A DNA stretch of 64,000 bases from an uncultured bacterium (lineage in GTDB: Bacteria; Krumholzibacteriota; Krumholzibacteriia; WVZY01; JAKEHA01). The stretch covers positions 28,022 through 92,021 of the forward strand of contig CAZPQK010000009.1 of NCBI GenBank assembly GCA_964588695.1, given 5' to 3'. Positions 186 to 24,131 of the stretch are shown piece by piece (within the stretch, counting starts at the first letter, position 1; every line of letters begins with the position of its first letter). The position numbers and the translations under genes were made by a program. The notes below the pieces were generated by a model. It saw only the letters and a list, made by a program, of their open reading frames with translations, was not told the DNA's origin and ran no database searches.

Positions 186-911
186 GTGAGCGCCACTGGC
201 GCCATGACCATCCTTTCATTTATCGATACGCTCAAACTCGCGACCGGACTTGCTCCGGTCGTGGTGTTTCTATTGGTACTGGTGGCAGTGTTCCGTCGCC
301 GTCAACTCGCGCGCCTTGACATCGCTGCAAGCACCCTGTTGGGTGCAATTGCTGCTCTGGTTTCTTTAGCAATCAACACAGTATTCATTCGCAGTTTTGA
401 TGTTTCGGCCGAAACGATGGCGCGCTACGGTGTGCCGGTTATTGAAGAACTGGTAAAGTGCGGGATTGTGTTAGCACTCGTGACTACCGGTAAACGTCGT
501 CGCCTGTGGGATGCTGTCGTTATTGGGTTCGGTGTGGGGTGCGGATTTGCCGTTATCGAGAACGCGTTCTATGCCCACCAGCTAGCCCAGCGAGCCTGGG
601 ACATATGGTTGTTTCGGGGCTTTTCTTCGGCGGTGCTTCACGGAGGTATCGCCGCCCTGTTCGGGATCGTGACCTGGGCGTTTCTGTCGCGCGGCTTTGG
701 TTGGGCTCGTGCCGCGTACCCCGGCCTCCTGTCCGCGATGTCGGTACACGCGTTCTACAACAACTTCGTGGTGTCTCCCACAGCATTCACGGTCGCGCTC
801 TACGTATTCCTTCCACTCGTGTTGGTGCTGGTGTTTCGCAAAGCTTCTCATGATGCCAAGCAAGGCGCTAAAGGTCGGCGACCGAGCGCCGATAAAGATG
901 ATTCCTGCTAA
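186..911 (+). CDS. prsW: PrsW-family glutamic intramembrane protease (short form)
   Basis: Multi-TM protein with motifs PVIEELVK, GFGVGCGFAVIENAFY, AVLHGG and HAFYN. Start may be the ATG at 204. Confidence 0.85.
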   Translation: MSATGAMTILSFIDTLKLATGLAPVVVFLLVLVAVFRRRQLARLDIAASTLLGAIAALVSLAINTVFIRSFDVSAETMARYGVPVIEELVKCGIVLALVTTGKRRRLWDAVVIGFGVGCGFAVIENAFYAHQLAQRAWDIWLFRGFSSAVLHGGIAALFGIVTWAFLSRGFGWARAAYPGLLSAMSVHAFYNNFVVSPTAFTVALYVFLPLVLVLVFRKASHDAKQGAKGRRPSADKDDSC

Positions 912-978
912 AAATTCCTAAACTCGAGCCACGTTTGTGCCGTTAACGGAAGGTACCCAAGCAAGCACGAGGGCGGGG

Positions 979-5742: not shown

Positions 5743-6627
5743 TTGCCTTACTTTGGTGAAATTCTATCGTTAAGCGTGGCCGTGCTCTGGGGCCTGGCGA
5801 TGGTGCTGTTCAAAAAGAGCGGCGAGCGGGTTCACCCGGTTGCGTTGAACACGTTCAAGAACGTACTCGCATCGGTTTTGTTCCTGGTGACGATTTACTT
5901 GTTTGGCGGAACGTTGTTCGAGCCATTCAGCGCGACCGACTACATCCTGCTGGCGATCAGCGGGATTGTGGGAATTGCGATTGGCGATACGTTGCTGTTT
6001 GCCAGCCTTAATATCGTGGGCGCAGGGCCGACCGCGCTAATCAATTGCCTCTACAGTCCGTTTATTATTGGGCTTTCCTACCTCTTTCTGGCCGAAGTGT
6101 TGAGCCCCTTGCAGTTAGTGGGCGTCGCTATGATCGTCGCCGCGGTGCTAGAAACCGGCCGCGCCAGCGGGCCTTCTGCCGCATCTGGAAAGCGACGTGC
6201 GCTAGGAATCACACTGGGTGTCTTGGGTAACCTTGCCATGGCAATTGGCGTTGTGATGGTAAAACCCATACTGAACAACGCGCCGCTTTTGTGGGCGGTG
6301 GAAATCCGGTTGCTCGCGGGCGTTGCCGTGTTGTTGATCTTTCTTCTGCTAAATCCCCGTCGTCACGAGATCCTTCGCACGCTGCGGCACCGCGACGCGT
6401 GGAGGGATACAGTGCTGGGATCTTTTCTTGGTGGTTACGTGGCGATGATGGGATGGCTCGGCGGGATTAAATTCACCAAAGCATCAATCGCGGGCGCGCT
6501 CAATCAAACCAACGTAGTTTTCATAATCATCTTTGCCGCGATTCTGTTGCGCGAAAGAATCAGTGCCAGTCGTTGGTTGGCCATTGTCGTCGCTTTGGCG
6601 GGAGCGTTCCTGGTAACTTTCGGCTAG
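5743..6627 (+). CDS. DMT/EamA family transporter
   Basis: About 10 TM helices in two EamA-like repeats (LWGLAMVLFKK...; LLRERIS...). TTG start inferred because the ORF extension to 5401 overlaps the riboswitch. Confidence 0.85.
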   Translation: MPYFGEILSLSVAVLWGLAMVLFKKSGERVHPVALNTFKNVLASVLFLVTIYLFGGTLFEPFSATDYILLAISGIVGIAIGDTLLFASLNIVGAGPTALINCLYSPFIIGLSYLFLAEVLSPLQLVGVAMIVAAVLETGRASGPSAASGKRRALGITLGVLGNLAMAIGVVMVKPILNNAPLLWAVEIRLLAGVAVLLIFLLLNPRRHEILRTLRHRDAWRDTVLGSFLGGYVAMMGWLGGIKFTKASIAGALNQTNVVFIIIFAAILLRERISASRWLAIVVALAGAFLVTFG

Positions 6628-7655
6628 TCCTGCGAAACCACGATACCGGGTTCACGCACCGTAACCACTACGTCGCTGTCGATCTCAATCGTGCATCGGT
6701 AGTCGTCCCACACCGTTAGTGTGGTGTTGTTAAGCCGCACCTGAAGACTTACGTCGTGCCCGTGAAAGTGGCGACCAACAACCCGGCCAACAACACCGTC
6801 GCCGCCCGACGTTAGTTGTACGTGCTCGGGGCGAAGTGCGATAGTGACCGGACCGTGACACGGCGACGTTACCGGTATCGCTCCGATTGCAGTCTCGGCC
6901 GTGTTGCCATTTGCCGTTCCCTCGAGGATGTTGGCTCCGCCGATAAAGGCGGCAACGAACTGGGTTTGCGGTGAGGCGTAGAGTTCTTCTGGCGTGCCGA
7001 TTTGCTCGATTCGCCCGGCACGCATTACCGCAATGCGGTCGGCAAAATCCAGAGCTTCCTGCTGATCGTGAGTTACCATGACTGCCGTCATGGTGCGGTC
7101 ATGAATCACATCGCCCACTTTCGCACGCGCGTCAGCGCGCAATTCGGGGTCGAGGCTTCCGAACGGCTCGTCCAGCAGAATAACGTCGGGTCGAGGCGCC
7201 ATTGCCCGTGCCAGCGCAACCCGTTGTTGCTGTCCTCCCGATAGTTCGCGCGGAAGCTTGTCGGCATGCTCTTCCAGTTGAGCACGCTCGATGATTTGCT
7301 GCGCAAGTTCGCGGCGTTCGCGCGACGGTCGACTCCGCAAACCAAACATTACGTTGGCCATCACGGTCAGGTGGGGGAACAGCGCGAACTCCTGGAACAC
7401 GAAACCCACGTTTCGGCGGTCAGGAGGAATGTGATTGCGAGGCGAGGCGACTTCGCGACCAGCCAGGGTAATACTCCCGGCCGAGAGCCGTTCAAAACCT
7501 GCCAGTAGCCTGAGAGTTGATGTTTTCCCCGACCCCGATGGTCCCAGGATCGCGAAGACTTCGCCTCTCGCCACGTCGAAGCTAATGCTGTTGACCGCGG
7601 GGTGCGTTTGTCCCGGGTATGACATCGCGATGTCGACTGCCTTAACCAACGACAC
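6624..7655 (-). CDS. fbpC: Fe(III)-type ABC transporter ATP-binding protein
   Basis: Walker A GPSGSGKT, signature LSGGQQQR, Walker B ILLDEP and a TOBE-like tail. Confidence 0.85.
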
Positions 7656-9211
7656 TACGAATCCTCCTCGGCACGTCGGAAGAATATTGCGAGCAGTGTT
7701 GATGCCAACAGGACGATTGCTAGAGCGTGCGGCGCGGCGCGATCAAACAGCGCTTCGCTGGCGTATCCCCAAACGTTTAGCGCCAGCGAGTCAAAATTAA
7801 GCGGCGCCAACAGGAACGTCAGAGGTAGTTCTTTGACGCATGATAAAAACACAAGCGCGCCACCCGCGATTAATCCGGGTCTTAAGATTGGGAGCGTTAT
7901 CGACCGAAAGGTTTCGATGGGGCCCAACCCCAACGAACGGGCGGCTTCTTCGACACGCGGAGTTGCCGCGTGCAGACCCGCGCGAATCGGCCCTACGGCT
8001 TGAGCCAAAAAGTGTAACGCGTAAGCGACTACCAGAAGCGCGGCGGTTTGATAAAGAATTGGTGTCGTATTCAGCGCAAAAAAGATCAGCCCAAGTCCAA
8101 ATGCCAGAGACGGCGTAGCGTACCCGAGATAGGCCGAACGTTCCGCGACCCGTGACCAAACTGATGGGTATCGGTTGGAGAGAAACGCTAGAGGCAACGC
8201 CAGGCCGAGCGCAACCAGGCACGCAGGAAGGCTTACCCGAAATGAGTCCCAGGTGGCGTTGCCCAACTCGCCCAGAGAAGCAGCCAGCGGGGCTTGTGTC
8301 ATCCAAAAGATGATTACCCAGACCGGGATGACTACCCCCATCAATGCGACCGCGGCGCAAAACAGATGGGCGACGGCGCTCCAACGTCCCAACGCTATCG
8401 GGCCTCTCTGCTTGCGGGCACCCAGCCCGCTGCGTTGCAACACCAGATCACGTAACAAGCGAAACTCAACTGCGACCAGACTTCCGGTGACGGCGAGTAG
8501 CATTAGTGCCAGCCATGCGGCGTAAATGCGATCGTACGAAGCGTTGTACTGAACAAAGATAGCGTAACTAAAAGTCTCAAACCGCATCAAGCTGACCACG
8601 CCGAAGTCGCCCATGACGTACAACGCTACCAGCATGGCACCCGACAACATCGCTGGCCACAGCTGTGGTAGGGTGACACGCACGAACGTCTCGCGGGTGC
8701 CGCACCCCAGCGAACGAGCGGCTTCGGCAAGCGATGGGTCGAGGTTTATGAACGCTGTACGCAGATTCAAGTACATCAACGGAAAGTTGTAGATAATCAA
8801 CGCGATCGTCGCGCCAACGTAGCCGGTAAGTCGTGGAAACAGTCCGCCCAGGGGACCGGTGGGCGTCCCCAGCGCCAGCAGTGCGTACCCAACGACGTAC
8901 CCGGGAATCGACAATGGAAGCACGCCGAACAGGGTGTAGATAGACCGACCAGACAAGTCGGTGCGCGTGGTCAACCACGCCATGGGTAGTGCGATGGCCA
9001 GACTACCGGTTACGACTGTGATTGCCAGCCCCATGGTATTGACCAGCAACTTAAAGTTGCGCGGGCGCAATACCAGTTCGGCAACGCTATCCCAGTCGGC
9101 GTCGGTCGCGCGGACGCACAAGTAAACGATTGGTAGCAGCACACCCACGCCAGCCGCGGCGGCGGGGAGCAATAAGTACCATGGCGGGCGAATGCCACTT
9201 GCAGGCGACAC
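7655..9211 (-). CDS. fbpB: Fe(III)-type ABC transporter permease (two fused halves)
   Basis: Two EAA motifs (EAARSLGC, EAARSLGL) and many TM helices. Confidence 0.85.
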   Translation of the reverse strand: MSPASGIRPPWYLLLPAAAAGVGVLLPIVYLCVRATDADWDSVAELVLRPRNFKLLVNTMGLAITVVTGSLAIALPMAWLTTRTDLSGRSIYTLFGVLPLSIPGYVVGYALLALGTPTGPLGGLFPRLTGYVGATIALIIYNFPLMYLNLRTAFINLDPSLAEAARSLGCGTRETFVRVTLPQLWPAMLSGAMLVALYVMGDFGVVSLMRFETFSYAIFVQYNASYDRIYAAWLALMLLAVTGSLVAVEFRLLRDLVLQRSGLGARKQRGPIALGRWSAVAHLFCAAVALMGVVIPVWVIIFWMTQAPLAASLGELGNATWDSFRVSLPACLVALGLALPLAFLSNRYPSVWSRVAERSAYLGYATPSLAFGLGLIFFALNTTPILYQTAALLVVAYALHFLAQAVGPIRAGLHAATPRVEEAARSLGLGPIETFRSITLPILRPGLIAGGALVFLSCVKELPLTFLLAPLNFDSLALNVWGYASEALFDRAAPHALAIVLLASTLLAIFFRRAEEDS

Positions 9212-10258
9212 CTAAAGCAGTCCCAACTTTCGTAACAGAGAAAGCGTGCCTTCCAGGTCGTCCAGGTCGGCCAGTCCGACGTTGGGTGCCGCGGTCTGCA
9301 GGTCGGCGGTCTTAACCAAACGCGAATTAGGAATCACAGCGTCGATGACTGGGTATTCGAACACATCGCTGGCAAAGTATTGTTGAGCGTTTGGGCCCAG
9401 CAGAAACTTGACGAATTCCAACGCCGCGTACTTGCGTTGCGAGTTGGCCAGAATGCCCGCTCCGGCCACGTTGACCAGGTTGCCGATGTCGCCTTCCGCA
9501 AAGAACGTCTGCTCCACGGGATAACCGCTGTCACTTTTCTTAAAGCGCAACAGGTAGTAGTGGTTGGGAAGTCCCAGGTCGATTTCTCCCGCGGCAATGG
9601 CTTGTACGATTGCGGTGTTCTTGGGGTACGACTTCGCACCGTTCTCCTTCATTTGGCGAAGCCAGGTTTCGGTGCGTGACTCACCCCAGGCAACCCGCAT
9701 GGCCGTTACGAATGACTGAAATGACGCGTTGGTGGGGGCCCAACCGACGCGGTCGCGCCACGCCGGAGAGAGTAGTTCGGAAACGCTGGCGGGAAGATGG
9801 TCTTCCGATACGCGAGCCGGAGAGTACGCCAATACGCGTGCCCGACCGCTGGTTGCCACCCACGCCGCGTTTGGACTCGCGAACATGCTGGTCACCAAAC
9901 CGCTAACGTCGGACGGAAGGTCGGCAAACAGCCCGGCTTTGGCCACCGCGGACAGTGCTCCCGCGTCTTGTGCCCAAAACACATCGGCGTTGGACTTGTC
10001 GCCCTCTTCCTGTAAGGCGAGCGCCAATTGCGCGCTGTTGCCGTACTTGACGTCAACTTTGATGCCGGTCGCTTCTTCGAACTGTTCGATGATTGGTGCG
10101 ACCAGGCTTTTACTGCGTCCGGCATAAAGCGTAAGCGTATTGTCCTTGTCAGATTTTGCGAACGTCGACTGCGATGCGCCGTCGCTGCCGCCGTCGTTGT
10201 TAGTGCAGCCCAACGCCGCCAATACCGTTAGCGTCGTTAGTAAAGTGCGAAGTTTCAT
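9212..10258 (-). CDS. fbpA: Fe(III) ABC transporter substrate-binding lipoprotein (FbpA/FutA-like)
   Basis: Lipobox ALGC; motifs LYAGR, EEGDKSNADVF, SGRARV and NHYY (tandem Tyr iron ligands). Confidence 0.85.
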   Translation of the reverse strand: MKLRTLLTTLTVLAALGCTNNDGGSDGASQSTFAKSDKDNTLTLYAGRSKSLVAPIIEQFEEATGIKVDVKYGNSAQLALALQEEGDKSNADVFWAQDAGALSAVAKAGLFADLPSDVSGLVTSMFASPNAAWVATSGRARVLAYSPARVSEDHLPASVSELLSPAWRDRVGWAPTNASFQSFVTAMRVAWGESRTETWLRQMKENGAKSYPKNTAIVQAIAAGEIDLGLPNHYYLLRFKKSDSGYPVEQTFFAEGDIGNLVNVAGAGILANSQRKYAALEFVKFLLGPNAQQYFASDVFEYPVIDAVIPNSRLVKTADLQTAAPNVGLADLDDLEGTLSLLRKLGLL

Positions 10259-10262
10259 TTTG

Positions 10263-10934
10263 TTACTCCAGTGTGAAGTCGATTGGGATGATAAACAACA
10301 TATCTTGATCCAAAAAACCAGCGATCGGAAACGGCGCCGAGCGCTCCACCATGTTCAGGACTTCCCGGTCCAGTAAACCATGACCAGACCCGCGATCGAT
10401 TTGCGCGGTTATTACTCCGCCCTTCGATGTTAATACGAGCCGCAGTAACACTTCGCCTTCGAGTCGTCGTGCAATTGCAGTTCTCGGGTATCGCTTGTGG
10501 CGTTCCAACCATGCGACAACCACAGTTTCGACCCCCGGGTCGGCTGCGACTGGATTGGCGCCTGGTTCGCTTCCGATCGGAAGTTCCGAGGTCACCGGTG
10601 CGGCCGGTACGTTGCGGGGAGCAATGTTCGCGTCCGGAAGTTCAAACGACTCCGCCGACTGAGCTGCCTTTTCGTCACCAGAAGTCACAGGTTCTTTCGG
10701 GGCAGCGTTTGCTGACAGCGCCTCTTGTGCGGACGTTTCGGGCGGCACCGTTTCGTTTATCGGAGGCGCAGCCACTGGCGTTGGCGCTTCCGTCGGGGCC
10801 TGAAGCCGGACACGAATAGCCTCGGGCGGGTTCGTTGTCACCGGCTCCGGCAGGCGAACTCCCGCTAGCACCGCGACGTGCAGCGCCGCCGACACAGTTA
10901 GAAGCGTCGCGAACCCCAGGCGGCGTCGGGTCAT
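10263..10934 (-). CDS. tonB: Energy transducer TonB
   Basis: N-terminal TM SAALH, Pro-rich linker and C-terminal YPRTAIARRLEGEV...GSGHGLLDREV. Confidence 0.9.
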   Translation of the reverse strand: MTRRRLGFATLLTVSAALHVAVLAGVRLPEPVTTNPPEAIRVRLQAPTEAPTPVAAPPINETVPPETSAQEALSANAAPKEPVTSGDEKAAQSAESFELPDANIAPRNVPAAPVTSELPIGSEPGANPVAADPGVETVVVAWLERHKRYPRTAIARRLEGEVLLRLVLTSKGGVITAQIDRGSGHGLLDREVLNMVERSAPFPIAGFLDQDMLFIIPIDFTLE

Positions 10935-11332
10935 GGCCGCCCCTGGGTAGCAATCGCTACGTTGGTGACATTGGCCTTTCGCAACTGATCCATCATGTCG
11001 ACAAGGCGTTGCACAGGCTGGTCGCCGTCGGTTTTGATCATTACGGTTTGCTCTTCCTGATTGACGATCAGTCGGGCAACCACTGGTCCGACCTGGTCGA
11101 ACTCAATCCGGTCGCCGTTTACGGCGACGCCACCGCCCGCCAGGAGAACCACGGTGATGTTGTCGATGTCACCGGGCGCCGAACTGCTGGATTCAGGAAG
11201 TTTCAAGTCGATCGCTTCCGCGACCAGGTAGGTGCTGGTTAGCATGAAGAAGATAAGCAGCAACAAGACCACGTCAATCAACGGAGCCATGTTCAGGTTC
11301 ATGGGCATGCGCGAGCGCCCTTCAAACTCCAT
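10931..11332 (-). CDS. exbD: Biopolymer transporter ExbD
   Basis: Motif LNMAPLIDVVLLLLIFFML. Confidence 0.92.
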   Translation of the reverse strand: MEFEGRSRMPMNLNMAPLIDVVLLLLIFFMLTSTYLVAEAIDLKLPESSSSAPGDIDNITVVLLAGGGVAVNGDRIEFDQVGPVVARLIVNQEEQTVMIKTDGDQPVQRLVDMMDQLRKANVTNVAIATQGRP

Positions 11333-12005
11333 AACTGTCGCTCCCGTCGAGCTCCTCTAAAAGCACTGGCCCTTTGGGGATTGCTCGTCCCTTGCGATAG
11401 TGAACCAGTATGCGAACGCTTGCATCTTTCATCGCGGCGCGCAGTTTGTCGACTTCGCCTTCAAAGTAGAAGTAACCCGCCATCGCGGGGATGGCCACGG
11501 CCAGGCCAAACGCGGTGGTTAGCAAGGCTTCCCAGATTCCGCCCGACAACACGGCGGGGTCAACTCGAGAGCCTGCCACTTCCAGATTCATGAACGCCTC
11601 AATCATTCCTAACACCGTGCCCAACAAGCCGCAAAACGGTGCCAGGTGTGCGATCGACGAAAGCATTCGCAACCACGATTCAATTCGACGTACCTGCTCG
11701 GAACCCACGCGACTTATTTCGGCTTCGGAGTCTGCGGTGGACATCGATCGGTCGCGACCGACAGTAATGGCCGACTCGATTACGCGCGCGACCGGCGAAC
11801 GGTCCTGCTTTAGAGCCCGAAAGGCATCGTCAACGGCGCCGTGTTGTAAGTTTCGCATGGTCGCGTCGATGACTTGAGTGTGGCGTGTACCCAGTCGCAG
11901 AAACTGAATTGCTTTGAACGCGATGATGGTCAACGCCAGGACCGACATACCCAAAAGCAGGTACATGATCGGTCCACCCTGTTGCAAAAGTGTATTTGCG
12001 TTCAC
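11322..12005 (-). CDS. exbB: MotA/TolQ/ExbB proton channel
   Basis: Motifs APFCGLLGTVLGMI and GGIWEALLTTAFGLAVAIPA. Confidence 0.92.
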   Translation of the reverse strand: MNANTLLQQGGPIMYLLLGMSVLALTIIAFKAIQFLRLGTRHTQVIDATMRNLQHGAVDDAFRALKQDRSPVARVIESAITVGRDRSMSTADSEAEISRVGSEQVRRIESWLRMLSSIAHLAPFCGLLGTVLGMIEAFMNLEVAGSRVDPAVLSGGIWEALLTTAFGLAVAIPAMAGYFYFEGEVDKLRAAMKDASVRILVHYRKGRAIPKGPVLLEELDGSDSYGV

Positions 12006-12249: not shown

Positions 12250-14760
12250 ATGCGAATTTTCAGATTTCTCGTTCTGGCAATGATAACCGTCGCCGCTTTT
12301 GTGGCTTTGAACCGTCCCATCGGGTTGGTCCCGCCCCTGGGCAAGTTTCTAAGTCCGTTTTCGGGGTTCTGGCGAAATGGCTCCATCCACGACCGCATTC
12401 CCGATCAGGTGGAACTTCCGGGATTGTCCGCCAACGTTACCGTTGTGTGGGACAGTCGCATGATCCCACACATTTTTGCCGACAACGACCACGACTTGTA
12501 TTTAGCGCAAGGCTTTGTCACCGCGCGCCATCGATTGTGGCAGATGGAGTTTCAAACCCTAGCGGCAGCCGGACGTTTGTCGGAAGTCTTGGGCGAGCGG
12601 ACAGTGGAGTACGACCGGTTCCAGCGACGCATCGGCATGCTCGCTAGCGCAGAGCAAGGCGTGGACGCGATCATGTCGGAGCCGGAAACACGCGACGCGA
12701 TAAACGCATATCTCTTGGGCGTGAACCATTACATCTCTACGCTCACGCCCGCCGACCTTCCGGTCGAGTACAAGCTACTCGACTATAAACCGCAAACCGC
12801 GACGCCACTGCAGTTGGCGTTGTTGCTAAAATACTTTCAATACGATCTGACATTCAATACGCAGGACTTCGCAATTGAACGATCGTTGCAGTTGCTCGAT
12901 GCGGAAACGTTTCGTTTCTGGTATCCGACTCATCCACCCTACGATGACCCCATCGTTCCCAAAGGGACGCGGTGGAACTTTAAGCCGATTGCGCCGCGAG
13001 TCCCGCAGCCAACCCCCCATCCGCTGGGCCAGCATGCTGAACGCCGCACAAGTCTCGACCGGAAGCCTGGTGGCGTCAGCAGCCATGACGCTACGCCGCA
13101 GTTTGCCTTTCGTGCCAACGCACCCGACCCGAACGACGGTCAGGTACGGGGAAGTAACAACTGGGCGGTTGCACCCGACCGGACGCTGGCCGGTAACGCG
13201 CTTCTTGCGTTTGATCCGCATCTGACGTTGTACCTTCCCAGTTTGTGGTACGAAGTGCAGTTGCACGCGCCGGGGATCAATGTTTATGGCGTGACGCCGC
13301 CGGGGACGCCCGGAGTCGTGTTTGGTTTCAACCAGGACATCGCATGGGGCGCAACCAACGCCGAAGACGACTTGATTGATTGGTATCGACTGGATTTGCG
13401 AGATGACTATCGCGAATACCGTTACCAGGAAAACTGGCTGTCGACGTCTACGCGATTTGAAACAATCAAAGTGCGCGGGAAAAAAGCTGTTGTCGACACC
13501 GTGTACTACAGCCACCACGGCCCGGTGGTTTATCGCGATGGCGAGCCGCGCTTCTTTGAGGCGATTGCCCCCAACACTGCGCTACGTTGGACCGCTCACG
13601 AGCCCACCAACGACCTGCTTGGATTGATGCGGGTAAATCGAGCAAGTGACGTTTCCAGTTTTGCCGCTGCCCTGTCGGAACTTCGTTCGCCGCAGTTGAA
13701 TTTTGCGTTGGCGGCGCGAAGTGGCGATATCGGTATTTGGCATACGGGAATGTATCCAATCCGTCGCCAGGATGTGCGTTGGGGGGTTAAGGATGGGACT
13801 CGGCCCCAGGATGAGTGGGGAGGGTGGATTCCACGCGAACACTTGCCAACGTCGATCAACCCGCAGCGGGGTTGGGTGAGTTCGGCGAATCAAAAGGCCA
13901 CCGACGCGACGTATCCGTACTACATGATCTGGGACTTTGTGAGCGTCGATCGCGCCAGTCGAATAAACGAAGAACTCGCGCGTCTGGACAACGCGACCAC
14001 CGAAGACATGAAGCAACTACAGTTAGACGTGTTTAATCGTCACGCGCGCGAAGTGTTGCCAACTATGCTCGCGTCCGTCGATCAGTCGCAGCTAGCACCC
14101 GACGTGCGGTTGGTCTACAACGAGCTAGCGGCCTGGGACTATCAACACGTCGCCACGTCAACGGCAAGTCGAGTATTCGCATATTGGTGGGCCTACCTTT
14201 ACGATGCGATTTGGGACGACAACGTTCAACGCGAAGGCGGTAACCTGGCGTGGCCGAGTCGTGATGTCACGCGGTACCTGCTAACCAACTTCACCGAACA
14301 TCCGGTTTATGACAACGTTGCTACGGAGAAAAATGAATCTCTCGGCGACGTCGCGCTAGCGTCACTGGTAACGACTGTCGAAAAGATGACCGAGGCGTTC
14401 GGTCCGTTCGGTGCGGAATGGAATACCGGAACCTCACGCGGTACCACCATCGGCCACCTGGGGCGGATCCCCAGCTTTGGTCGCCGGGTGGCGACGGGCG
14501 GAACCAATACGACGGTTAACGCGACCAAGCGTACCAGCGGTCCGTCGTGGCGAATGGTTGCGTCGCTGGAAACGCCAATCCGGGCGTGGACGATTTATCC
14601 GGGAGGACAGTCCGGCAACCCGGGGTCGCGGTATTACGACAGTATGGTGAGTGATTGGGTTAAGGGTAAGTACCGGGAAGCGGTGTTTCTTACCGCGCCC
14701 GACCAGCGCGACGCGCGCATCATCGGTCGAACCGTTTTGACGCCGGAGGCTGGAGAATGA
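12250..14760 (+). CDS. Penicillin acylase family (Ntn hydrolase, S45) protein
   Basis: Motifs IPHIFA, AQGFVTARHRLWQM, autocleavage site GSNNWAV, DPHL and PGGQSGNPGSRYY. Confidence 0.92.
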   Translation: MRIFRFLVLAMITVAAFVALNRPIGLVPPLGKFLSPFSGFWRNGSIHDRIPDQVELPGLSANVTVVWDSRMIPHIFADNDHDLYLAQGFVTARHRLWQMEFQTLAAAGRLSEVLGERTVEYDRFQRRIGMLASAEQGVDAIMSEPETRDAINAYLLGVNHYISTLTPADLPVEYKLLDYKPQTATPLQLALLLKYFQYDLTFNTQDFAIERSLQLLDAETFRFWYPTHPPYDDPIVPKGTRWNFKPIAPRVPQPTPHPLGQHAERRTSLDRKPGGVSSHDATPQFAFRANAPDPNDGQVRGSNNWAVAPDRTLAGNALLAFDPHLTLYLPSLWYEVQLHAPGINVYGVTPPGTPGVVFGFNQDIAWGATNAEDDLIDWYRLDLRDDYREYRYQENWLSTSTRFETIKVRGKKAVVDTVYYSHHGPVVYRDGEPRFFEAIAPNTALRWTAHEPTNDLLGLMRVNRASDVSSFAAALSELRSPQLNFALAARSGDIGIWHTGMYPIRRQDVRWGVKDGTRPQDEWGGWIPREHLPTSINPQRGWVSSANQKATDATYPYYMIWDFVSVDRASRINEELARLDNATTEDMKQLQLDVFNRHAREVLPTMLASVDQSQLAPDVRLVYNELAAWDYQHVATSTASRVFAYWWAYLYDAIWDDNVQREGGNLAWPSRDVTRYLLTNFTEHPVYDNVATEKNESLGDVALASLVTTVEKMTEAFGPFGAEWNTGTSRGTTIGHLGRIPSFGRRVATGGTNTTVNATKRTSGPSWRMVASLETPIRAWTIYPGGQSGNPGSRYYDSMVSDWVKGKYREAVFLTAPDQRDARIIGRTVLTPEAGE

Positions 14761-17961: not shown

Positions 17962-18390
17962 ATGAGTCATCCCGCCGCCAAGAGTCACTTTGATCGCTCG
18001 ATCGACGCGTTAACGCAGGTCTTTGGTTTTCTGGAGTCCTGCTACCAGCAGATGGATATTGGGGAATCGGTGCAGTACGCGGTGAACCTCTCGGTTGAAG
18101 AGCTTTTTACCAACATCGTCAAATATAGTCCGGATACCGGCAACGCAGTCGAAGTTGCGCTTGTGCGCGAACCCGGTCGAGTCACGATTCGCATCGTAGA
18201 CGAAGACACCGAGAAGTTTGACGTCACCAGGCCGTCGGAGTTTGACCCCGAGATGGGCTTGGAAGATCGGCGTGAGGGTGGGGTGGGGCTGCATCTGGTG
18301 CAATCGATGATGGACGAAATCAACTACGACTACAAAAATAGAACCGCGCGCATCACGCTGGTGAAATACGTGGAGGAAAGTGATGTTTGA
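17962..18390 (+). CDS. RsbW/SpoIIAB-like anti-sigma factor Ser kinase (HATPase_c)
   Basis: N-box EELFTNIVKY, FDVT and G2 GGVGLHLVQSMMDEI. An extended -10 (TGcTAGACT) lies just upstream. Confidence 0.85.
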   Translation: MSHPAAKSHFDRSIDALTQVFGFLESCYQQMDIGESVQYAVNLSVEELFTNIVKYSPDTGNAVEVALVREPGRVTIRIVDEDTEKFDVTRPSEFDPEMGLEDRREGGVGLHLVQSMMDEINYDYKNRTARITLVKYVEESDV

Positions 18391-18664
18391 GATTCGCATC
18401 GACGGGGACACGGTCTATCTGTCTGGGCGCCTGGATGCCACCAGTGTCGATCGCGCCCGGGACACCCTCAATCTGGTGGAAAGCGACGCGCGGGTCGACT
18501 TTGACGGACTGGGTTACATTTCTAGTGCCGGGCTGGGGGTTCTCTTGGGGACCCAGAAACGCCTCAGCGCTTCCGGTCATTCCCTGACATTGACCAACCT
18601 CAACCCCCATATCCGCGAAATCTTTCGAATTGCAGGATTCGACAAGGTATTTGCAATCGAATAG
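18380..18664 (+). CDS. STAS-domain anti-anti-sigma factor (RsbV/SpoIIAA-like)
   Basis: Motifs LSGRLD, phosphoacceptor YISSAGLG and IREIFRIAGF. Overlaps the upstream kinase gene. Confidence 0.9.
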   Translation: MMFEIRIDGDTVYLSGRLDATSVDRARDTLNLVESDARVDFDGLGYISSAGLGVLLGTQKRLSASGHSLTLTNLNPHIREIFRIAGFDKVFAIE

Positions 18665-18858
18665 AAATAAATCACTTAAGTAAAAAGCGGTACCGACCGA
18701 AATTCCTACCAACTTCGCGGCTAATTCGTTTGTATTTCTTAGTTGAAAGTATGAATGACCGCGGCAACGCGATGCCTCACGGATATCGGCCGTATGATCC
18801 CGCCCCCGGGTAGCGCATCATCCGCTCGGCAAAGCGCGTCACACAAGGAGGAATCAAC

Positions 18859-20058
18859 ATGGGCAAGAACAAAGGGTTCGCAATAGCCCTCAGTGTTCTG
18901 GTGATCGCTGCCATCGGCTACTTTAGCTTTTTAAGCCCGGGTCCCGATGAGAACGAATTGACCGGCGCCATCGGCACCGTGGAAAAGTACCGCGCCGACC
19001 AGATTAACGAATCCGACGTCGTCACCGGCGAGACCATTCCCAACTTTGACGACATCGTCGGCGAATGGTTTAACGACGAAGGCGTCATCGAAAGCGTGAA
19101 CGGTTTGCTTGGCCGCGCATCGTTGCAGGAGCGTGCGAGCTTTTTCGAGCGCGCCAGCATGCAGGAAAAATCGGCCATCCTGGGTCGCGCGTCCGTTCAG
19201 GAACGCGCCAGCATGTTCGAACGCGCCAACCTGCAAGAACGTGTTGATATGTTTGGTCGCGCGAGCGCGCAAGAGCGGTCGAACTTCTTCGAGCGCGCCG
19301 GTATTCAGGAAGCTGACTTCAACCGGGCTTCCCTGCAGGGTCGTGCCAGTATGCTAGGCCGCGCCAACGCGCAAGAACGTGCTAGCTTCTTCGAGCGTGC
19401 CAATATGCAGGAGCGCGCCGCGATTCTTGGCCGGGCTTCGCTGCAGGAGCGGGCTAATTTCTTTGCTCGCGCAAATATGCAGGAAAAAGCTGCCATTCTT
19501 GGCCGGGCTTCAATGCAAGAAAAAGCGAGTCTCTTTGAGCGCGCAAGCATGCAGGAACGCGCCCGCATGCTGGACCGGGTTTCGCTGCAGGGTAAAGCTG
19601 CATTTCTGGAGCGTGCTTCGCTGCAAGAGCGCGCTGCCATGTTGGGTCGTGCCGAAGCTCAAGAGCGCGCCGCAATGCTAGGGCGTTGCTCTGCGCAGGA
19701 GAAAGCGAGCTTGTTTGAGCGCGCGAACTTGCAGGAGCGAGTCGACATGTTCGGTCGCGCCAGCGTACAAGAGCGTGCGAGTTTCTTTGAGCGCTCCGGC
19801 GTAAAGGAAGCCGACTTTAACCGGGCGTCGCTACAGGAGCGCGCAAACATGCTGGGACGTGCGTCGATGCAGGAGCGTGCTAGCTTCTTCGAGCGCGCCA
19901 ACATGCAGGAGCGCGCGAACATCCTTGAGCGTGCCAGTATGCAGGAACGCGCCGCCGTTTTTGCCCGAGCCAACATGCAGGAACGTGCTGCGATGCTGGG
20001 ACGTGCGTCGGTGAAGGAACGCGCCAGTGTGTTTCAGCGTGCGTGGATGGGTCAATAG
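18859..20058 (+). CDS. Membrane-anchored or secreted tandem-repeat protein of unknown function
   Basis: Strong RBS AAGGAGG; N-terminal TM FAIALSVLVIAAIGYFSFL; acidic linker; residues 85-392 are 26 repeats. Confidence 0.85.
   Translation: MGKNKGFAIALSVLVIAAIGYFSFLSPGPDENELTGAIGTVEKYRADQINESDVVTGETIPNFDDIVGEWFNDEGVIESVNGLLGRASLQERASFFERASMQEKSAILGRASVQERASMFERANLQERVDMFGRASAQERSNFFERAGIQEADFNRASLQGRASMLGRANAQERASFFERANMQERAAILGRASLQERANFFARANMQEKAAILGRASMQEKASLFERASMQERARMLDRVSLQGKAAFLERASLQERAAMLGRAEAQERAAMLGRCSAQEKASLFERANLQERVDMFGRASVQERASFFERSGVKEADFNRASLQERANMLGRASMQERASFFERANMQERANILERASMQERAAVFARANMQERAAMLGRASVKERASVFQRAWMGQ
19111..20055 (+). repeat. Coding tandem repeat, 36-nt (12-aa) period, consensus [GE]RA[SN][LM]QERAxx[FL]
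   Basis: 24 units of 12 aa plus two 10-aa units (ERAGIQEADF, ERSGVKEADF) 14 units apart, then a partial unit. Confidence 0.95.
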
Positions 20059-20081
20059 GAACAAGCTTTAGCCTTGATCGC

Positions 20082-20121
20082 GAGGTGCTGTGGCGATACC
20101 GTCACAGCACCTCTCTTTTTT
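20082..20121 (+). terminator. Intrinsic terminator between the repeat gene and the outer-membrane protein gene
   Basis: GAGGTGCTGTGGCG-ATAC-CGTCACAGCACCTC followed by TCTTTTTT. Confidence 0.75.
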
Positions 20122-20130
20122 GGAGTCGCC

Positions 20131-23118
20131 ATGGGTTGTCGTTTGCTTGTTTCACTTGTGGTCGCGGTAAGTGTGGCCGCCGCCGTATTTGTCGCGCCCG
20201 CCAGCGCCCAGTTTAAGTGGCAAACACTTACGACCAACAACATGCGCCTCGTTTACTACGACCCCGAGCACGCCTACGTGTTGCCGCATCTTGCGAGATG
20301 TTTCGAAAACACGATGGGGTTCTACCATGACTTCCTGGGCTACGTTCCGACCGAAGAAGTAACAATCCTGCTGCAGGACTTCGACGATCACGGCTACGCG
20401 GGAACGTCGACGATTCCCAACAACTACATTACGCTTGGTATCGAGCCGTTCGAATATGTTTACGAGACTTGTCCAACCAACGAGCGTTTTAATTGGGTGA
20501 TCAACCACGAGCTTTTTCACGTGGTTGCGTCGGAGAAAGCCGCGGGCACCGACAACCTCTATCGCCGGTTGTTCTTTGGGAAGGTTGCAGCGGTATCCAA
20601 AGATCCGGTCTCGATGTTTTACAGCTACTTGTCGAACCCTCGTCGGTATGCTCCACGGTGGTACCACGAAGGTATCGCAGTGTTCATGGAAACATGGATG
20701 GCCGGCGGTGTTGGCCGGTCGTTGGGCGGTTACGATGAGATGGTGTTCCGCAGCATGGTAGCCAATAACGATTACTTCTACGATGTCGTTGGTTTGGAGT
20801 CGGAAGGTACCACCAGTGACTTCCAGATTGGCCAGAACAGCTACCTGTACGGCACACGGTTCATGAGTCATCTCGCGGTTAAATTTGGCCCCGAGAAAGT
20901 GGTAGCGTGGGTCGATCGCGCCCCCGGCACCAGGGCTAGTTTTCGCGCGCAGTTTAGGCAAACCTTCGGCACGACCCTCGACGACGAATGGCGCGCGTGG
21001 ATTCAGGACGAAAGGATCTGGCAGCAGGGAAACCTGGCTCGGATACGCGAGTTTCCGGTGACTCCACAACGCAACGTTGGCCCGCGGGCTTTCGGTTCGG
21101 TGTCGCGCGGGTACTATGACGAAGACCTCGACCAGCTCATTGTTGCGGTCAACTATCCTGGCGAGTTCGCTCATGTTGCTTCGGTCGGTCTCACCAATGG
21201 CGAAGTCAAGAAAGTCTGCGAAGTCCAGACGCCGGCATTGTACTACGTGTGCGCAACTGCCTACGATCCGCAGCATCATCGGCTTTATTACACCACTAAC
21301 AACGGTAAGCACTGGCGAGACCTTAATGTTCTCGACGTGGTAAGCGGCGAAACGACGCGTTTGATCGACAATATACGCACCGGAGATTTGTCGTTTAATC
21401 GTGCGGACGGTTCCATCTGGGGTGTGCAGCATCACAATGGTAAAAGCGCCATCGTTCGCATTGCGCCGCCCTACACGCAGTGGGAAAACATCACCGAATT
21501 GTATACGCTCCCTTTTGGTCGCGACCTCTATGACCTGGATGTGTCGCCAGACGGCAATCACCTGGTGGGTTCGATGTTTGGTGTAACCGGCCGCGCTCAG
21601 TTGGTGCGGTTTGATACCAAAGCCCTCATGAATGGGGATGCGGGGTACAACGTTCTCTATGAGTTTGTAAACACCGCGCCGTATGGATTCAACTACTCTG
21701 CGGATGGCCGGTACGTTTATGGCAGTGCGTACCAGACGGGTGCTTCTAACGTGTTCCGCTTTGATTTCGAAACCGAAGAAATGGCGTGCCTGTCCAATGT
21801 TGAGACCGGATATTTTCGCCCGGTTCCGTTACGTGGTTTAACCCGCCCGTCGTCCGCTGCCGCTGATTCGTTGATTGTGTTTCACTACGGCTCCGAGGGT
21901 TTGCGTCCGGTACTGATATCGGAACGCAAACTGGAGGACGTTAACGCCGTGCGATACCTGGGTAACGAAATCGTAACCCGCCATCCGGTTGTTCGCGACT
22001 GGAAGCTGGGTTCGCCTTTGGATGTCGACCTGGGAGCTGTCAAGCAATCGCAGGGTGACTACAGCAAGTGGGGCAACACCGGGGTCGCGTCAATGTATCC
22101 TATCGTGGAGTCGTACAAGGAACGAGCCGCGGTGGGATTTCGGTTAAACTTTATGGATCCGGTTGGGTTGCACGGTGGCGACGTATCGCTAACGTTCTCT
22201 CCTGATAAGCTTCCCGACAACGAGCAGTGGCACAGCTCGTTGACCTATCGCAGTTATCCTTGGACGTTGGGTGCCAGTCTTAACCGTGCAGACTTCTATG
22301 ATTTCTTCGGCCCCACCAGGACCAGCCGCAAAGGCCGTTCGGTGTCGCTTGCCTACGATGGTGTTGTGATCGCGGACAAACCACGGTACCTGAATTACAC
22401 GCTGTCGAGCGCGTATTACGGAGGCCTTGAAACCGACCCCGACTTTCAAAACGTGGACGCAACTTACACCGAGTTTGCTACCGCAAGCGCACGGCTGGAC
22501 TACAAGCGCGAGCGCCGATCGATTGGCGCCGTCGATGTCGAGAAAGGGCTGTTATGGGGTACGGGTGTGCATGGCAATCTGGTCAACGAGGAAGTTTATC
22601 TTAACGCCGATGGTCATTGGGATGTTGGAGTAACGACGCCGTGGGATCATTCGTCGCTGTGGTTGCGCACCGCGGCCGGGTACTCGTTCGGCGACCGCGA
22701 AGACTCGTTCGCCAACTTCTTTTTTGGCGGCTTTGGCAACAACTACGTCGATCATCGCGAAGTAAAGCGCTACCGCGACGCGGTAAGCTTTCCGGGATTG
22801 GAACTTAACGAAGTTGGCGGAACCAACTACGCCAAAGCGATGTTGGAGTGGACGCTGCCCGCGATGCGCTTCCGGCGTTTTGGGCTGCCGGTACTCTACT
22901 GCACCTGGGCGCGGACAGCGCTTTTTTCCAGCGGCCTGTTTACCAATGTTTCCAGCGAATCGACACAACGAGAACTCCTGAACGTGGGCGGTCAGGTTGA
23001 CTTTCGTCTGGTGTTCTTCTCTGGGCTTTCGTCAACACTATCGGTAGGCTACGCGGTCGCTTTCGAAGACGGAAGGTCTCCACAAACCGAACTCATGATC
23101 AGCCTTCGCATTCTATGA
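20131..23118 (+). CDS. Large outer-membrane protein: gluzincin peptidase domain, TolB/PD40-like propeller and probable Omp85-type beta-barrel
   Basis: Signal peptide ending APASA; HELFH and PRWYHEGIA zinc motifs; propeller-like DVSPDG and YSADG; aromatic-rich amphipathic C-terminal strands. ATG at 20131 has a GGAG RBS. The barrel family is inferred. Confidence 0.7.
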   Translation: MGCRLLVSLVVAVSVAAAVFVAPASAQFKWQTLTTNNMRLVYYDPEHAYVLPHLARCFENTMGFYHDFLGYVPTEEVTILLQDFDDHGYAGTSTIPNNYITLGIEPFEYVYETCPTNERFNWVINHELFHVVASEKAAGTDNLYRRLFFGKVAAVSKDPVSMFYSYLSNPRRYAPRWYHEGIAVFMETWMAGGVGRSLGGYDEMVFRSMVANNDYFYDVVGLESEGTTSDFQIGQNSYLYGTRFMSHLAVKFGPEKVVAWVDRAPGTRASFRAQFRQTFGTTLDDEWRAWIQDERIWQQGNLARIREFPVTPQRNVGPRAFGSVSRGYYDEDLDQLIVAVNYPGEFAHVASVGLTNGEVKKVCEVQTPALYYVCATAYDPQHHRLYYTTNNGKHWRDLNVLDVVSGETTRLIDNIRTGDLSFNRADGSIWGVQHHNGKSAIVRIAPPYTQWENITELYTLPFGRDLYDLDVSPDGNHLVGSMFGVTGRAQLVRFDTKALMNGDAGYNVLYEFVNTAPYGFNYSADGRYVYGSAYQTGASNVFRFDFETEEMACLSNVETGYFRPVPLRGLTRPSSAAADSLIVFHYGSEGLRPVLISERKLEDVNAVRYLGNEIVTRHPVVRDWKLGSPLDVDLGAVKQSQGDYSKWGNTGVASMYPIVESYKERAAVGFRLNFMDPVGLHGGDVSLTFSPDKLPDNEQWHSSLTYRSYPWTLGASLNRADFYDFFGPTRTSRKGRSVSLAYDGVVIADKPRYLNYTLSSAYYGGLETDPDFQNVDATYTEFATASARLDYKRERRSIGAVDVEKGLLWGTGVHGNLVNEEVYLNADGHWDVGVTTPWDHSSLWLRTAAGYSFGDREDSFANFFFGGFGNNYVDHREVKRYRDAVSFPGLELNEVGGTNYAKAMLEWTLPAMRFRRFGLPVLYCTWARTALFSSGLFTNVSSESTQRELLNVGGQVDFRLVFFSGLSSTLSVGYAVAFEDGRSPQTELMISLRIL

Positions 23119-24131
23119 TCACCGATCTTGTTGCCATCGTTGCGAGCCTGCTCCCGGTTCTTGTCTTTCTTGCGGTGTTGGTCTATCTCGATAGCTATAA
23201 GTTGGTGCCCGTTCGCGTGGTCTTAATAACGATCGGGGTTGGCGTCGTAGTTGCGGCGGTCGCGATGGGGATTAACAAGGGGCTGCTTGAGGCGACCGGA
23301 ATGGGGGGGAAGATGTACGCGCGTTCACTAGCGCCCGCGGTGGAAGAACTGCTTAAAAGTGTTTATGTGGTCTATTTGTTGCGCAGCCGTCGCGTCGGTT
23401 TTGTGGTCGATGCGGCCATCCACGGCTTCGCTATTGGCGCGGGGTTCGCCATTATCGAAAACCTCTACTACCTGCAAGCAATTGGCGATGCGCCGGTGGT
23501 AACCTGGTTTATTCGTGGGTTCGGAACCGCCGTGTTGCATGGCGGTGCAACGTCGTTATTTGCGATGATCGCGAAGGGACTATTGGACCGCGATCATCCC
23601 GTGCCGCAGTCGATAACGCTGGCGCTGTTGCTGGCAATTGCCCTGCACACCCTGTACAACAACTTCGTGTTGCCTCCGTTGGTATCGGTGTTGGTGTTGT
23701 ACTCGGTCTTTCCACTGTTGATTACGGTCGTGTTTTACCACAGCGAGCGCGCCACCAATCGCTGGTTGGGCAACCAGTTCGACACCGACCAGGAGTTGCT
23801 CGACATTATCAATTCCGGGGCTGTGGCCGAGTCTCGGATCGGCGAGTTCTTTGAATCGGCTCGCGAGCAGTTCCCGCCCGAAATGCTGGTAGACATGTTG
23901 TGCTACCTTCGCATTCATGTCGAACTGGCGATCAGCGCCAAAGGAATGCTGCTGCTGCGTGAAGCTGGTTTCGAACCGCCGGTCGATGAATCGGTTCGGT
24001 CGCGGTTTGCCGAATTGGTTCACCTGAAGAAATCGTTGGGACGCACGGGGCTGCTCGCGATTCAGCCGTTTCTTCACACCAACGATCGTGACCTCTGGCA
24101 ACTCCACATGCTGGACCAGCAATCCCGCTAG
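23115..24131 (+). CDS. prsW: PrsW-family intramembrane protease with ~125-aa C-terminal soluble extension
   Basis: Motifs APAVEELLK, GFAIGAGFAIIENLYY, AVLHGG and HTLYN. ATGA overlap with the outer-membrane protein gene. Confidence 0.87.
   Translation: MITDLVAIVASLLPVLVFLAVLVYLDSYKLVPVRVVLITIGVGVVVAAVAMGINKGLLEATGMGGKMYARSLAPAVEELLKSVYVVYLLRSRRVGFVVDAAIHGFAIGAGFAIIENLYYLQAIGDAPVVTWFIRGFGTAVLHGGATSLFAMIAKGLLDRDHPVPQSITLALLLAIALHTLYNNFVLPPLVSVLVLYSVFPLLITVVFYHSERATNRWLGNQFDTDQELLDIINSGAVAESRIGEFFESAREQFPPEMLVDMLCYLRIHVELAISAKGMLLLREAGFEPPVDESVRSRFAELVHLKKSLGRTGLLAIQPFLHTNDRDLWQLHMLDQQSR

Follow-up and report, generated by a model that had tools for sequence, protein, structure and literature searches.

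The envelope stress response of Escherichia coli runs through RpoE-RseA-RseB-DegS-RseP, cell-surface signalling by FecA-FecR-FecI passes from an outer-membrane protein to a bitopic, periplasm-spanning protein and then to a sigma factor of the extracytoplasmic-function (ECF) type, and SigB is governed by the RsbU/RsbV/RsbW partner switch. To our knowledge, most of what is understood about envelope-stress signalling comes from Proteobacteria and Firmicutes, and we know of no described envelope-stress pathway in the phyla that carry the genes reported here. In the established regulated-proteolysis pathway of SigW, PrsW is the site-1 and RasP the site-2 protease acting on RsiW, an anti-sigma factor (PMC10202637), and 'WD40-Omp85' has been described as an uncharacterised subfamily of Omp85/TpsB proteins with a propeller–barrel layout (Heinz & Lithgow, 2014; PMC4104836). 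Here we compare with these systems a locus of an uncultured Krumholzibacteriota bacterium that lies in a 64,000-nucleotide stretch of its contig C9 (hereafter the window; positions 28,022–92,021 of CAZPQK010000009.1). Five co-oriented open reading frames (ORFs) on the plus strand at window positions 17962-24131 encode an RsbW-like protein, a STAS protein, a repeat protein (REP), an outer-membrane protein (OMP) and a PrsW-family protease. They make up most of a cassette of seven genes—RsbW, STAS, ECF sigma factor, anti-sigma factor, REP, OMP and PrsW—which probably senses outer-membrane trouble and switches on a stress sigma factor in several little-known phyla.

The full composition of the cassette is seen in relatives. 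Proteins related to OMP at 44–60% identity are found in 584 species genomes or more, with roughly one copy in each, and the best 80 loci carry the labels Krumholzibacteriota/Latescibacterota, Eisenbacteria, Fibrobacteraceae, Ignavibacteriota, Bacteroidota, KSB1, Calditrichota, Zixibacteria, Acidobacteriota, Marinimicrobia, Cloacimonadota and Armatimonadota. Between STAS and REP, where the window has neither, all 10 of the relatives' loci with upstream flank hold a sigma and an anti-sigma gene; in locus L020, for example, these are an ECF sigma gene and an overlapping gene for a single-pass anti-sigma factor. In the 49 loci whose sequence extends 5 kb or more upstream and 1.1 kb or more downstream of OMP, hidden Markov model (HMM) scans found the N-terminal module of REP in 49, PrsW in 47, the ECF sigma factor in 44, the anti-sigma factor and STAS in 43 each, RsbW in 40 and all six OMP partners together in 36, with the REP and OMP genes adjacent in every one (49/49). 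Some loci are rearranged, i.e., PrsW is relocated upstream in L081, L082, L093, L101 and L103, and RsbW-STAS is inverted in L087, L091 and L105. Because the identical gene order recurs across phyla, the five-gene arrangement lies far beyond chance. Co-inheritance points the same way: among 41 related genomes—which are kin and not independent samples—33 have orthologue-level matches to OMP, 31 combine an OMP orthologue with both the REP module and the PrsW tail (the module of locus L018, e.g., at G037:C37:75619-75843), six carry none of the three (G010, G023, G025, G034, G039 and G040, which are 65–100% complete, four of them at least 96%) and four have mixed content (G019, G029, G033 and G036).

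An earlier sequence-only reading of this DNA had described five co-oriented genes with a partner-switch pair, a bitopic REP with about 6 cytoplasmic residues and a 26-unit repeat, a 995-residue OMP with an intact HExxH...E site and a translationally coupled PrsW with a soluble tail. All five genes are found and its domain calls stand, and the particulars given for REP, OMP and PrsW hold in the analyses below. Its suggestion that synteny be checked is answered by the recurrence of the five-gene order, with the sigma pair, across phyla; the genes do co-occur elsewhere. What does not stand is the five-gene block as a unit sufficient to itself: the genes are real and inherited together, but the sigma and anti-sigma genes lie outside the block. 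The pair escaped that reading because it has moved about 19 kb upstream and is mostly outside the window.

The cassette is, in this genome, divided. The ECF sigma gene lies just before the window (C9:26982-27551; tblastn match C9:27006-27548, 65% identity to the sigma factor of L020), immediately upstream of and overlapping by 4 nt the gene of an RsiW-like anti-sigma factor, which starts at C9:27548, 473 nt before the window, and whose 3' end occupies window positions 1-180 on the plus strand. Directly after it, at 186-911 (plus strand), stands a second, tail-less PrsW of 241 residues (PrsW'; PrsW-protease, 75.3 bits). The upstream order is STAS' (a second STAS), sigma, anti-sigma, PrsW' and a Hanks-type kinase-like ORF, with STAS' to PrsW' at C9:26.6-28.9 kb. 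By tblastn, STAS' is 49% identical to the window STAS and PrsW' is 34% identical to the window PrsW; the window STAS shares 64–66% identity with the relatives' cassette STAS, as against at most 50% for STAS', and the best matches of PrsW' are the relatives' long cassette PrsWs, at about 36% identity. On account of these identities, STAS' and PrsW' are diverged duplicates. The 5' flank of the upstream half, namely the genes of an 804-residue protein sorted by the type IX secretion system (T9SS) and of an ArfB-like protein, matches what precedes the undivided cassette of L020; the split is therefore derived. The STAS'-sigma-anti-sigma-PrsW' half occupies the ancestral site, with the RsbW-STAS-REP-OMP-PrsW half about 17–19 kb downstream.

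Several neighbouring genes deserve mention here. The kinase-like ORF directly after PrsW' (window 937-1923, 328 residues) has a hydrophobic C-terminus and resembles Hanks-type Ser/Thr kinases in our reading of its sequence; no kinase-like equivalent was seen after PrsW in L020. Between the two halves of the cassette, a minus-strand block at 9212-12005 holds ORFs for an iron-type ABC substrate-binding protein and for TonB-, ExbD- and ExbB-like proteins, followed by a penicillin-acylase-like ORF at 12250-14760 (all named from their translations only).

The two halves share a promoter motif. An ECF-type motif, CAACTT-N14-TGTA, stands on the plus strand at 18710-18734, 125 nt upstream of the REP start, and the same motif precedes this genome's sigma gene (C9:26975). 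In the loci L020 and L021, CAACTT-N13-16-TGTA occupies both the STAS-to-sigma and the anti-sigma-to-REP spacers, and across the 80 loci the motif lies upstream of the sigma gene in 23/52 and upstream of REP in 21/62. Matches number 45 in the 30.3 kb upstream of sigma and REP genes versus 11 in the 2.26 Mb elsewhere in these loci, i.e., an approximately 300-fold higher density, and at least 7 of those 11 are themselves just upstream of a sigma gene. The -35 element, AACTT, resembles the RpoE consensus. Since the same motif stands before the sigma gene and before REP, the sigma factor whose gene lies about 19 kb upstream very probably continues to read the REP-OMP-PrsW operon. Taken together, membership of the five genes in the cassette and their link to the sigma regulon are highly likely.

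A prediction of the sigma regulon in its own genome was set aside as too weak, with 29 matches found where about 13.5 are expected. Intergenic matches, among others those at C3:238344, C3:270185 and C6:253950, may hint at a regulon; three such matches precede T9SS-sorted proteins, namely an M43/reprolysin-like protease with a PKD domain, an FG-GAP protein and a small FlgD_ig protein. A second match in the window (47246-47271) is probably due to chance, because it lies inside a long ORF (the longest one covering it has 435 residues).

The sigma factor matches both Sigma70_r2 (56.5 bits) and r4_2 (53.6 bits) in Pfam. Against chains of the PDB, its profile scores about 1e-43 with 6in7_B and 8z6g_B (AlgU-type, 1.2e-43), 1.5e-41 with SigW and 4.1e-38 with RpoE (1or7_A). 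For the anti-sigma factor, the profile aligns with RsiW of B. subtilis (5wuq_C) along the sigma-binding domain, at an E-value of 3.2e-12; weak zf-HC2 matches occur in 6 of 43 individual anti-sigma factors, and Pfam scans of these 43 at E ≤ 1 gave no match to the FecR family. With sigma regions 2 and 4 and an adjacent RsiW-like anti-sigma factor, the two can be classed from their sequences as an ECF pair of the SigW/RsiW type. This genome also encodes an RseP-like site-2 protease (Peptidase_M50, 218.7 bits).

REP (18859-20058; 399 residues) begins with the six residues MGKNKG, followed by one hydrophobic helix at residues 7-25, and the conserved part of the protein is this N-terminal module (N-module), not the repeats. 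Found in 64 of the 80 loci, the module (18859-19023) comprises the cytoplasmic stub, the transmembrane (TM) helix at 7-25 and a juxtamembrane motif at residues 26-55 with conserved G36, I38, G39, Q48, D53 and V54; its general pattern is a K/R-rich stub, a TM helix, YPPP and D..GTIG..KYR..Q(I/M)...DV.L. The repeat region (residues 86-393; 19114-20037) consists of 26 helical units with the consensus RASxQERAxxF[GE], 24 of them of 12 residues and 2 of 10, with periods of 18, 36 and 72 nt in the DNA (Tandem Repeats Finder) and a composition that lacks P, T, H and Y and includes ~6% Met and ~7% Phe. The repeats match MgtE_N in Pfam (53.3 bits; cut-off 25.9), which we read as a likeness between helical repeats and not as a relationship to MgtE; the Pfam scan of REP yields only this repeat-driven match and LED_rpt, and no two-partner-secretion (TPS) domain. 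From lineage to lineage the repeats vary in type (STI1/HOP DP-like, DANQKA, SSELQSALA) and in length (200-930 residues).

The N-module of REP resembles the corresponding part of the anti-sigma factors. Specifically, the tetrapeptide G[TS][IMLV][GAST] occurs within 40 residues after the TM helix in 32 of 49 non-fused anti-sigma factors, 30 of them at offsets 11-20, as compared with 5 of 202 other windows and 5.6% of shuffled sequences, and hhalign aligns REP with the anti-sigma profile over 30 columns that span the TM end and GTIG (probability 82%, E 1.1e-5). In five loci (L047, L050, L078, L101 and, cut at its 5' end, L080), a single ORF fuses the anti-sigma domain (ASD), i.e., the sigma-binding domain of the anti-sigma factor, to the TM helix, motif and repeats of REP. 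In the L047 fusion (6267-7744), the repeats continue in a second ORF (7196-7744) with a 4-nt overlap, reflecting a frameshift or an assembly error within the repeats. Judged by these likenesses, REP looks like an anti-sigma-like protein without a sigma-binding domain. The sequence-only reading had argued that REP has too small a cytoplasmic part to serve as an anti-sigma factor, which is correct for this copy; what the fusions and the hhalign match add is that REP resembles an anti-sigma factor from which the sigma-binding domain has been taken away.

OMP starts at an ATG at 20131, preceded by GGAG, and spans 995 residues. It models as a zinc peptidase followed by a TolB-like propeller and a BamA-like barrel, and the model, built on an alignment of 44 sequences, has a mean predicted local confidence (pLDDT) of 87 and a predicted template-modelling score (pTM) of 0.86. 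The signal peptide and a zinc-metallopeptidase-like alpha/beta domain (residues 30-305) are encoded at 20131-21045, with HExxH at 20506-20520; H126, E127, H130, E180 and E187 are invariant in 44/44 orthologues, of which 14 match Peptidase_MA_2 below threshold (best 3.6e-5). The predicted six-bladed beta-propeller (residues 308-600; 21052-21930) has TolB 4jml_A as its top Foldseek match (E 1.4e-8) and aligns with 1c5k_A over 240 residues (VIA-align Z 22.6, root-mean-square deviation (rmsd) 2.8), and PD40 matches are sub-threshold in 13/44 orthologues. The predicted Omp85/BamA-like beta-barrel (residues 640-995; 22048-23118) aligns over 289 residues with Deinococcus radiodurans BamA (8xnb_B, chain 478-843; Z 19.8, rmsd 4.1). 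Its sequence score to Omp85_2 is 18 bits, below the cut-off of 23.1, and the same family is sub-threshold in 15/44 orthologues; by its modelled structure the barrel would place OMP, as a BamA-type barrel, in the Omp85 superfamily. Neither the model nor Pfam scans of the 44 orthologues (E ≤ 0.01) contain a POTRA domain. In sequence searches the best match of the OMP profile in the PDB is a propeller at E 0.0033, and NCBIfam returned 0 families; the family comprises 4,488 clusters at E ≤ 1e-10 among 8,000 scored in a word-index search, and all names among the best 120 clusters listed read 'hypothetical protein'. A paralogue of the N-terminal half of OMP, 1054 residues long and 23–28% identical to it, is encoded elsewhere in this genome (G000:C2:361859-365023; L115 3860-7024, minus strand), with matches to Peptidase_MA_2 (33.3 bits; cut-off 32.4) and PD40 (86.5 bits) and with SbcC/SbcD-like, GDSL lipase and LysR neighbours but no sigma context; paralogue-level matches are also present in several relatives.

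The PrsW gene (23115-24131) overlaps the OMP stop codon as ATGA, and its product combines a protease domain (23115-23744) with a helical tail (residues 211-337; 23745-24131) that is conserved and lies beyond the Pfam match. The latter covers residues 32-202 of 338 (PrsW-protease PF13367, 66.8 bits; cut-off 23.5). E77, E78, K81, F111, E115, N116, H142, H178 and N182 are invariant in 48/48 sequences and are, we take it, the EExxK, FxxxE and HxxxN-type motifs, and the NCBIfam equivalog for PrsW (NF033739) is missed at 35.9 versus 225 bits. The model (pLDDT 90.6) has seven TM helices in an APH-1-like fold with the EE motif on the N-terminal side, and residues 1-210 match APH-1 8oqz_C at Z 15.2 and Rce1 at Z 6.2 (VIA-align); another fold match, at Z 12.0, is presumably to a TMEM147-like chain. 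Seven TM helices together with an excess of K/R on the loops of the C-terminal side argue for an N-out, C-in topology, which would place the tail in the cytoplasm. Run against 1.84 billion proteins, a profile of the tail alone matched 663 representatives at E ≤ 1e-3, of which the top 150 are nearly all either PrsWs of 330-345 residues with the tail at ~205-335 or shorter fragments. With a mean column identity of 60% and a distribution confined to these proteins, the tail sets the long PrsW apart, by sequence, as a distinct subfamily. Its fold, taken within the whole-protein model, has no VIA-align match above Z 7.4, its best profile match in the PDB has an E-value of 0.36 and its best feature score in the ESM Atlas (0.81) is at chance level.

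A predicted complex of PrsW with REP residues 1-80—a check that the sequence-only reading had proposed for the REP N-terminus—scored 0.53, two of the runs giving 0.55 and 0.53 where the best of three controls gave 0.01, and the third run giving 0.00; partner pLDDT does not fall below 44, and the agreement of contacts is at least 64%. In the calibration of this method, 58 of 80 solved complexes scored at or above the mark, as did 2 of 110 mismatches, and scores of at most 0.60 comprised 7 of the 80 solved complexes and both mismatches.

At the head of the five genes, the RsbW-like protein (17962-18390) is a HATPase_c_2 protein, putatively of the partner-switch kinase/anti-sigma type (Pfam 69.6 bits; cut-off 27.4), whose start is an ATG internal to a longer ORF beginning at 17701. 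E47, N51, D87, G106 and G109 are invariant among 35 sequences, and the scores to the RsbW equivalogs of NCBIfam are 36.6 bits (cut-off 145) and 34.2 bits (cut-off 155). The STAS gene (18380-18664) encodes an anti-sigma antagonist orthologous to the cassette STAS (STAS_2, 55.5 bits), which passes the TIGR00377 cut-off (54.9 versus 53.45) and whose serines S48 and S49, in YISS(A/G)GL, are invariant in 39/39 sequences. In four loci, from Ignavibacteriota, Rhodothermales and Marinimicrobia, a gene for a GAF plus SpoIIE (PP2C) phosphatase stands directly upstream of RsbW and completes the partner-switch trio there (L062 3426-4730, L097 2990-4447, L098 1883-3220 and L105 3910-5196). This genome has nine SpoIIE-family matches, none of them near the window cluster.

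Drawing on the conserved gene order and content, on joint inheritance, on the promoter and the motif held in common, on the fusions and on the folds as modelled, we infer the proteolytic and binding steps of a mechanism akin to the regulated proteolysis of SigW and RpoE, with an outer-membrane sensor-protease and an anti-sigma-like co-sensor, to which as a whole we assign a probability of about 0.5. In this mechanism, a sigma factor of the RpoE/SigW type would be held at the membrane by the RsiW-like single-pass anti-sigma factor, a PrsW-family protease would cut first, immediately beyond the membrane and at or close to the conserved GT(I/M/L)(G/A) motif, and the site-2 protease encoded elsewhere would complete the cleavage, so that the sigma factor is released. 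REP would offer the same TM-plus-GTIG module to PrsW, either as a competing substrate or as a gate, while its helical repeat stalk reaches across the periplasm. On the far side, the OMP barrel would suspend the zinc peptidase and the TolB-like propeller in the periplasm, and OMP would act as an outer-membrane sensor or protease that engages or trims the REP stalk and thereby couples the state of the outer membrane to PrsW activity. RsbW and STAS may provide a cytoplasmic input, in which the GAF-PP2C phosphatase would take part in other phyla. The sequence-only reading had offered, as one of two models, a periplasm-spanning REP that relays a signal to RsbW/STAS; the relay comes closer to our reading, and its likely receiver is the ECF sigma/anti-sigma pair and not the partner switch.

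A number of observations weigh against this proposal. Membership in the sigma regulon is expected equally of genes that are pure output, and the genome-wide excess of the motif is only about twofold. The 49-locus counts come from HMMs built from the very loci they scanned, so that seeds match by construction. In this genome the anti-sigma factor adjoins a PrsW' of its own, so that here the long PrsW may have ceased to act on it. Under the pattern used, 17 of the 49 anti-sigma factors lack the candidate cleavage motif, and the REP repeats are not conserved between lineages, which would be odd for a surface in contact with OMP (itself 45-60% conserved) unless only length or helicity matters. The PrsW–REP prediction, with one of three runs at 0.00, is weak support and adds little. 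The G1 box of the RsbW-like protein is degenerate, its DxG not being conserved in the 35 sequences. Finally, the PrsW tail was tried as a sigma mimic and rejected, as it has no sigma likeness (0.07% probability in hhalign against the ECF sigma profile).

Other arrangements of the same parts have to be set beside the proposed mechanism. REP, OMP and PrsW could all be sigma-induced effectors of outer-membrane quality control, with PrsW alone acting on the anti-sigma factor; OMP would then join a BamA-like barrel with a BamB/TolB-like propeller and a BepA-like protease in one chain, and REP would serve as a tether or holdase in the periplasm. The ECF promoter that precedes REP-OMP-PrsW would suit such a role, but regulators of ECF sigma factors are commonly in their own regulon, and the promoter thus does not separate a sensor from an output. 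Consistent with quality control are also the STI1/HOP DP-like scores of the REP repeats in other phyla—the STI1/HOP DP motif being a client-binding helical motif—and the peptidase-propeller paralogue of this genome, which stands outside any sigma context, as well as the description of the 'WD40-Omp85' subfamily, in the passages of PMC4104836 devoted to it, as reminiscent of a BamA-BamB fusion. However, the TM-proximal motif that REP shares with the anti-sigma factors and the five ASD fusions tie REP to the sensing side, and gain and loss of REP, OMP and the PrsW tail coincide, which leads us to consider this account rather unlikely. Clearly less likely still is that REP is cargo, freed by PrsW and then trimmed and exported by OMP as a surface fibre or as peptides, which the sequence-only reading had proposed in its other model by analogy with two-partner secretion and for which type Vd secretion is a further parallel. 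OMP has an Omp85-like barrel, REP is repetitive and is encoded next to OMP in all 49 loci, and type Vd PlpD does carry an N-terminal enzyme on an Omp85 barrel (in the portion of PMC4104836 that treats it). Yet OMP lacks POTRA domains in its model and in the Pfam scans of its 44 orthologues, REP lacks a TPS domain in Pfam, the conservation of REP lies in its anchor and juxtamembrane motif and not in the would-be cargo, whose repeats are specific to lineages, and in the five loci with an ASD-REP fusion, export would leave a sigma factor attached to the secreted protein. We regard export of REP as very improbable.

Between these two in likelihood stands the possibility that the partner switch is a recipient: the output of RsbW/STAS would be the PrsW tail, with phosphorylation gating the protease in place of RsbW action on a sigma factor, or the REP signal would end at RsbW/STAS, as in the relay of the sequence-only reading. 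After the split, RsbW and STAS remained with the tailed PrsW while the sigma and anti-sigma genes kept the tail-less PrsW', the only predicted cytoplasmic parts of the five-gene block are RsbW, STAS and the PrsW tail, this tail is conserved and restricted to one PrsW subfamily, and GAF-PP2C genes precede RsbW in four loci. On the other hand, the tail is kept where no RsbW/STAS was found nearby (L083, L089 and L099), RsbW and STAS are the least constant members of the cassette (40/49 and 43/49), STAS' stayed with the sigma factor, which suggests that STAS acts on sigma control, and REP has just 6 cytoplasmic residues with which to signal. We therefore find a receiving role for RsbW/STAS distinctly doubtful and retain regulated proteolysis of the anti-sigma factor, with OMP and REP on the sensing side, as the preferred mechanism.

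Three well-known modules meet in the cassette: a partner switch, an Omp85 barrel and an ECF sigma factor with regulated proteolysis. Its parts are of kinds already known; within the literature searched, no report of their combination turned up, and the same applies to the tailed PrsW, to a peptidase-propeller-Omp85 protein in a sigma cassette, to the pseudo-anti-sigma and to the natural split. The statement of the sequence-only reading that no characterised system has this composition agrees with these searches, which turned up no published description of the cassette; the supplements of PMC7826278 and PMC4104836 may list the ECF group or the Omp85 subfamily. PrsW, STAS, RsbW and HATPase receive no mention in the main text of Casas-Pastor 2021 (PMC7826278), and besides Heinz & Lithgow (2014) a single further paper contains the term 'WD40-Omp85'. 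Carriers belong mostly to uncultured phyla, and the best 80 loci all come from metagenome-assembled or single-amplified genomes (MAGs or SAGs). The cassette offers testable handles: a defined promoter, a candidate cleavage motif common to two proteins, natural fusions and a natural split. The orphan 'WD40-Omp85' branch of the Omp85 superfamily and the tailed PrsW subfamily would also be placed, for the first time, in a functional setting.

Set against the described systems, the cassette shares with SigW-RsiW-PrsW-RasP of B. subtilis the broad ECF clade, an RsiW-like anti-sigma factor, the catalytic-type residues of PrsW and a genome-encoded site-2 protease, and differs in its diderm setting, its outer-membrane partner, the additional anti-sigma-like REP, the RsbW/STAS pair and the ~125-residue, putatively cytoplasmic tail of PrsW beyond the Pfam model; B. 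subtilis PrsW, as far as we know, is without such a tail. The RsbU/RsbV/RsbW switch resembles it in the combination of HATPase_c_2 and a STAS protein with conserved serine and, in some phyla, in the PP2C (SpoIIE-family) phosphatase with GAF upstream, whereas here the pair stands beside an ECF sigma factor that already has a membrane anti-sigma factor, and RsbW misses both the equivalog cut-offs and the G1 DxG. Compared by description, the TolB-like propeller N-terminal to an Omp85 barrel without POTRA is the layout of 'WD40-Omp85'; the passages of PMC4104836 that describe this subfamily make no mention of an HExxH peptidase, an ECF sigma factor, PrsW or a repeat protein.

In signalling logic a parallel is FecA-FecR-FecI, in which FecR is reported to be cleaved by RseP, and the ASD-REP fusions are FecR-like in having a sigma-binding domain, one TM helix and a long periplasmic part beside an outer-membrane gene. 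In contrast to that system, the outer-membrane partner is of the Omp85 type with peptidase and propeller and not a TonB-dependent transducer, the periplasm-spanning protein and the anti-sigma factor are separate in most genomes, and PrsW is part of the cassette. With E. coli RpoE the cassette has in common an RpoE-like sigma factor, and a periplasmic accessory that gates the first cut would parallel RseB; unlike the E. coli system, the cassette is without a DegS- or RseB-like gene, site 1 is presumably cut by PrsW and the sensor would be built into the outer-membrane protein itself. We put forward, as a tentative extension that we hold to be possible though on balance doubtful, that these genes form a new trans-envelope pathway of the Fibrobacterota–Chlorobiota–Bacteroidota (FCB) group phyla, Acidobacteriota and neighbours, in which an Omp85-family sensor with its own periplasmic zinc protease and propeller would signal the state of the outer membrane to the inner one through a periplasm-spanning REP 'pseudo-anti-sigma' that gates the tailed PrsW by offering it the cleavage module of the true anti-sigma factor, with the partner switch as a cytoplasmic veto. 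If true, the split cassette of this genome would be a natural dissection of the two halves of the pathway, and the pathway would be the functional counterpart, in these phyla, of the RpoE stress response.

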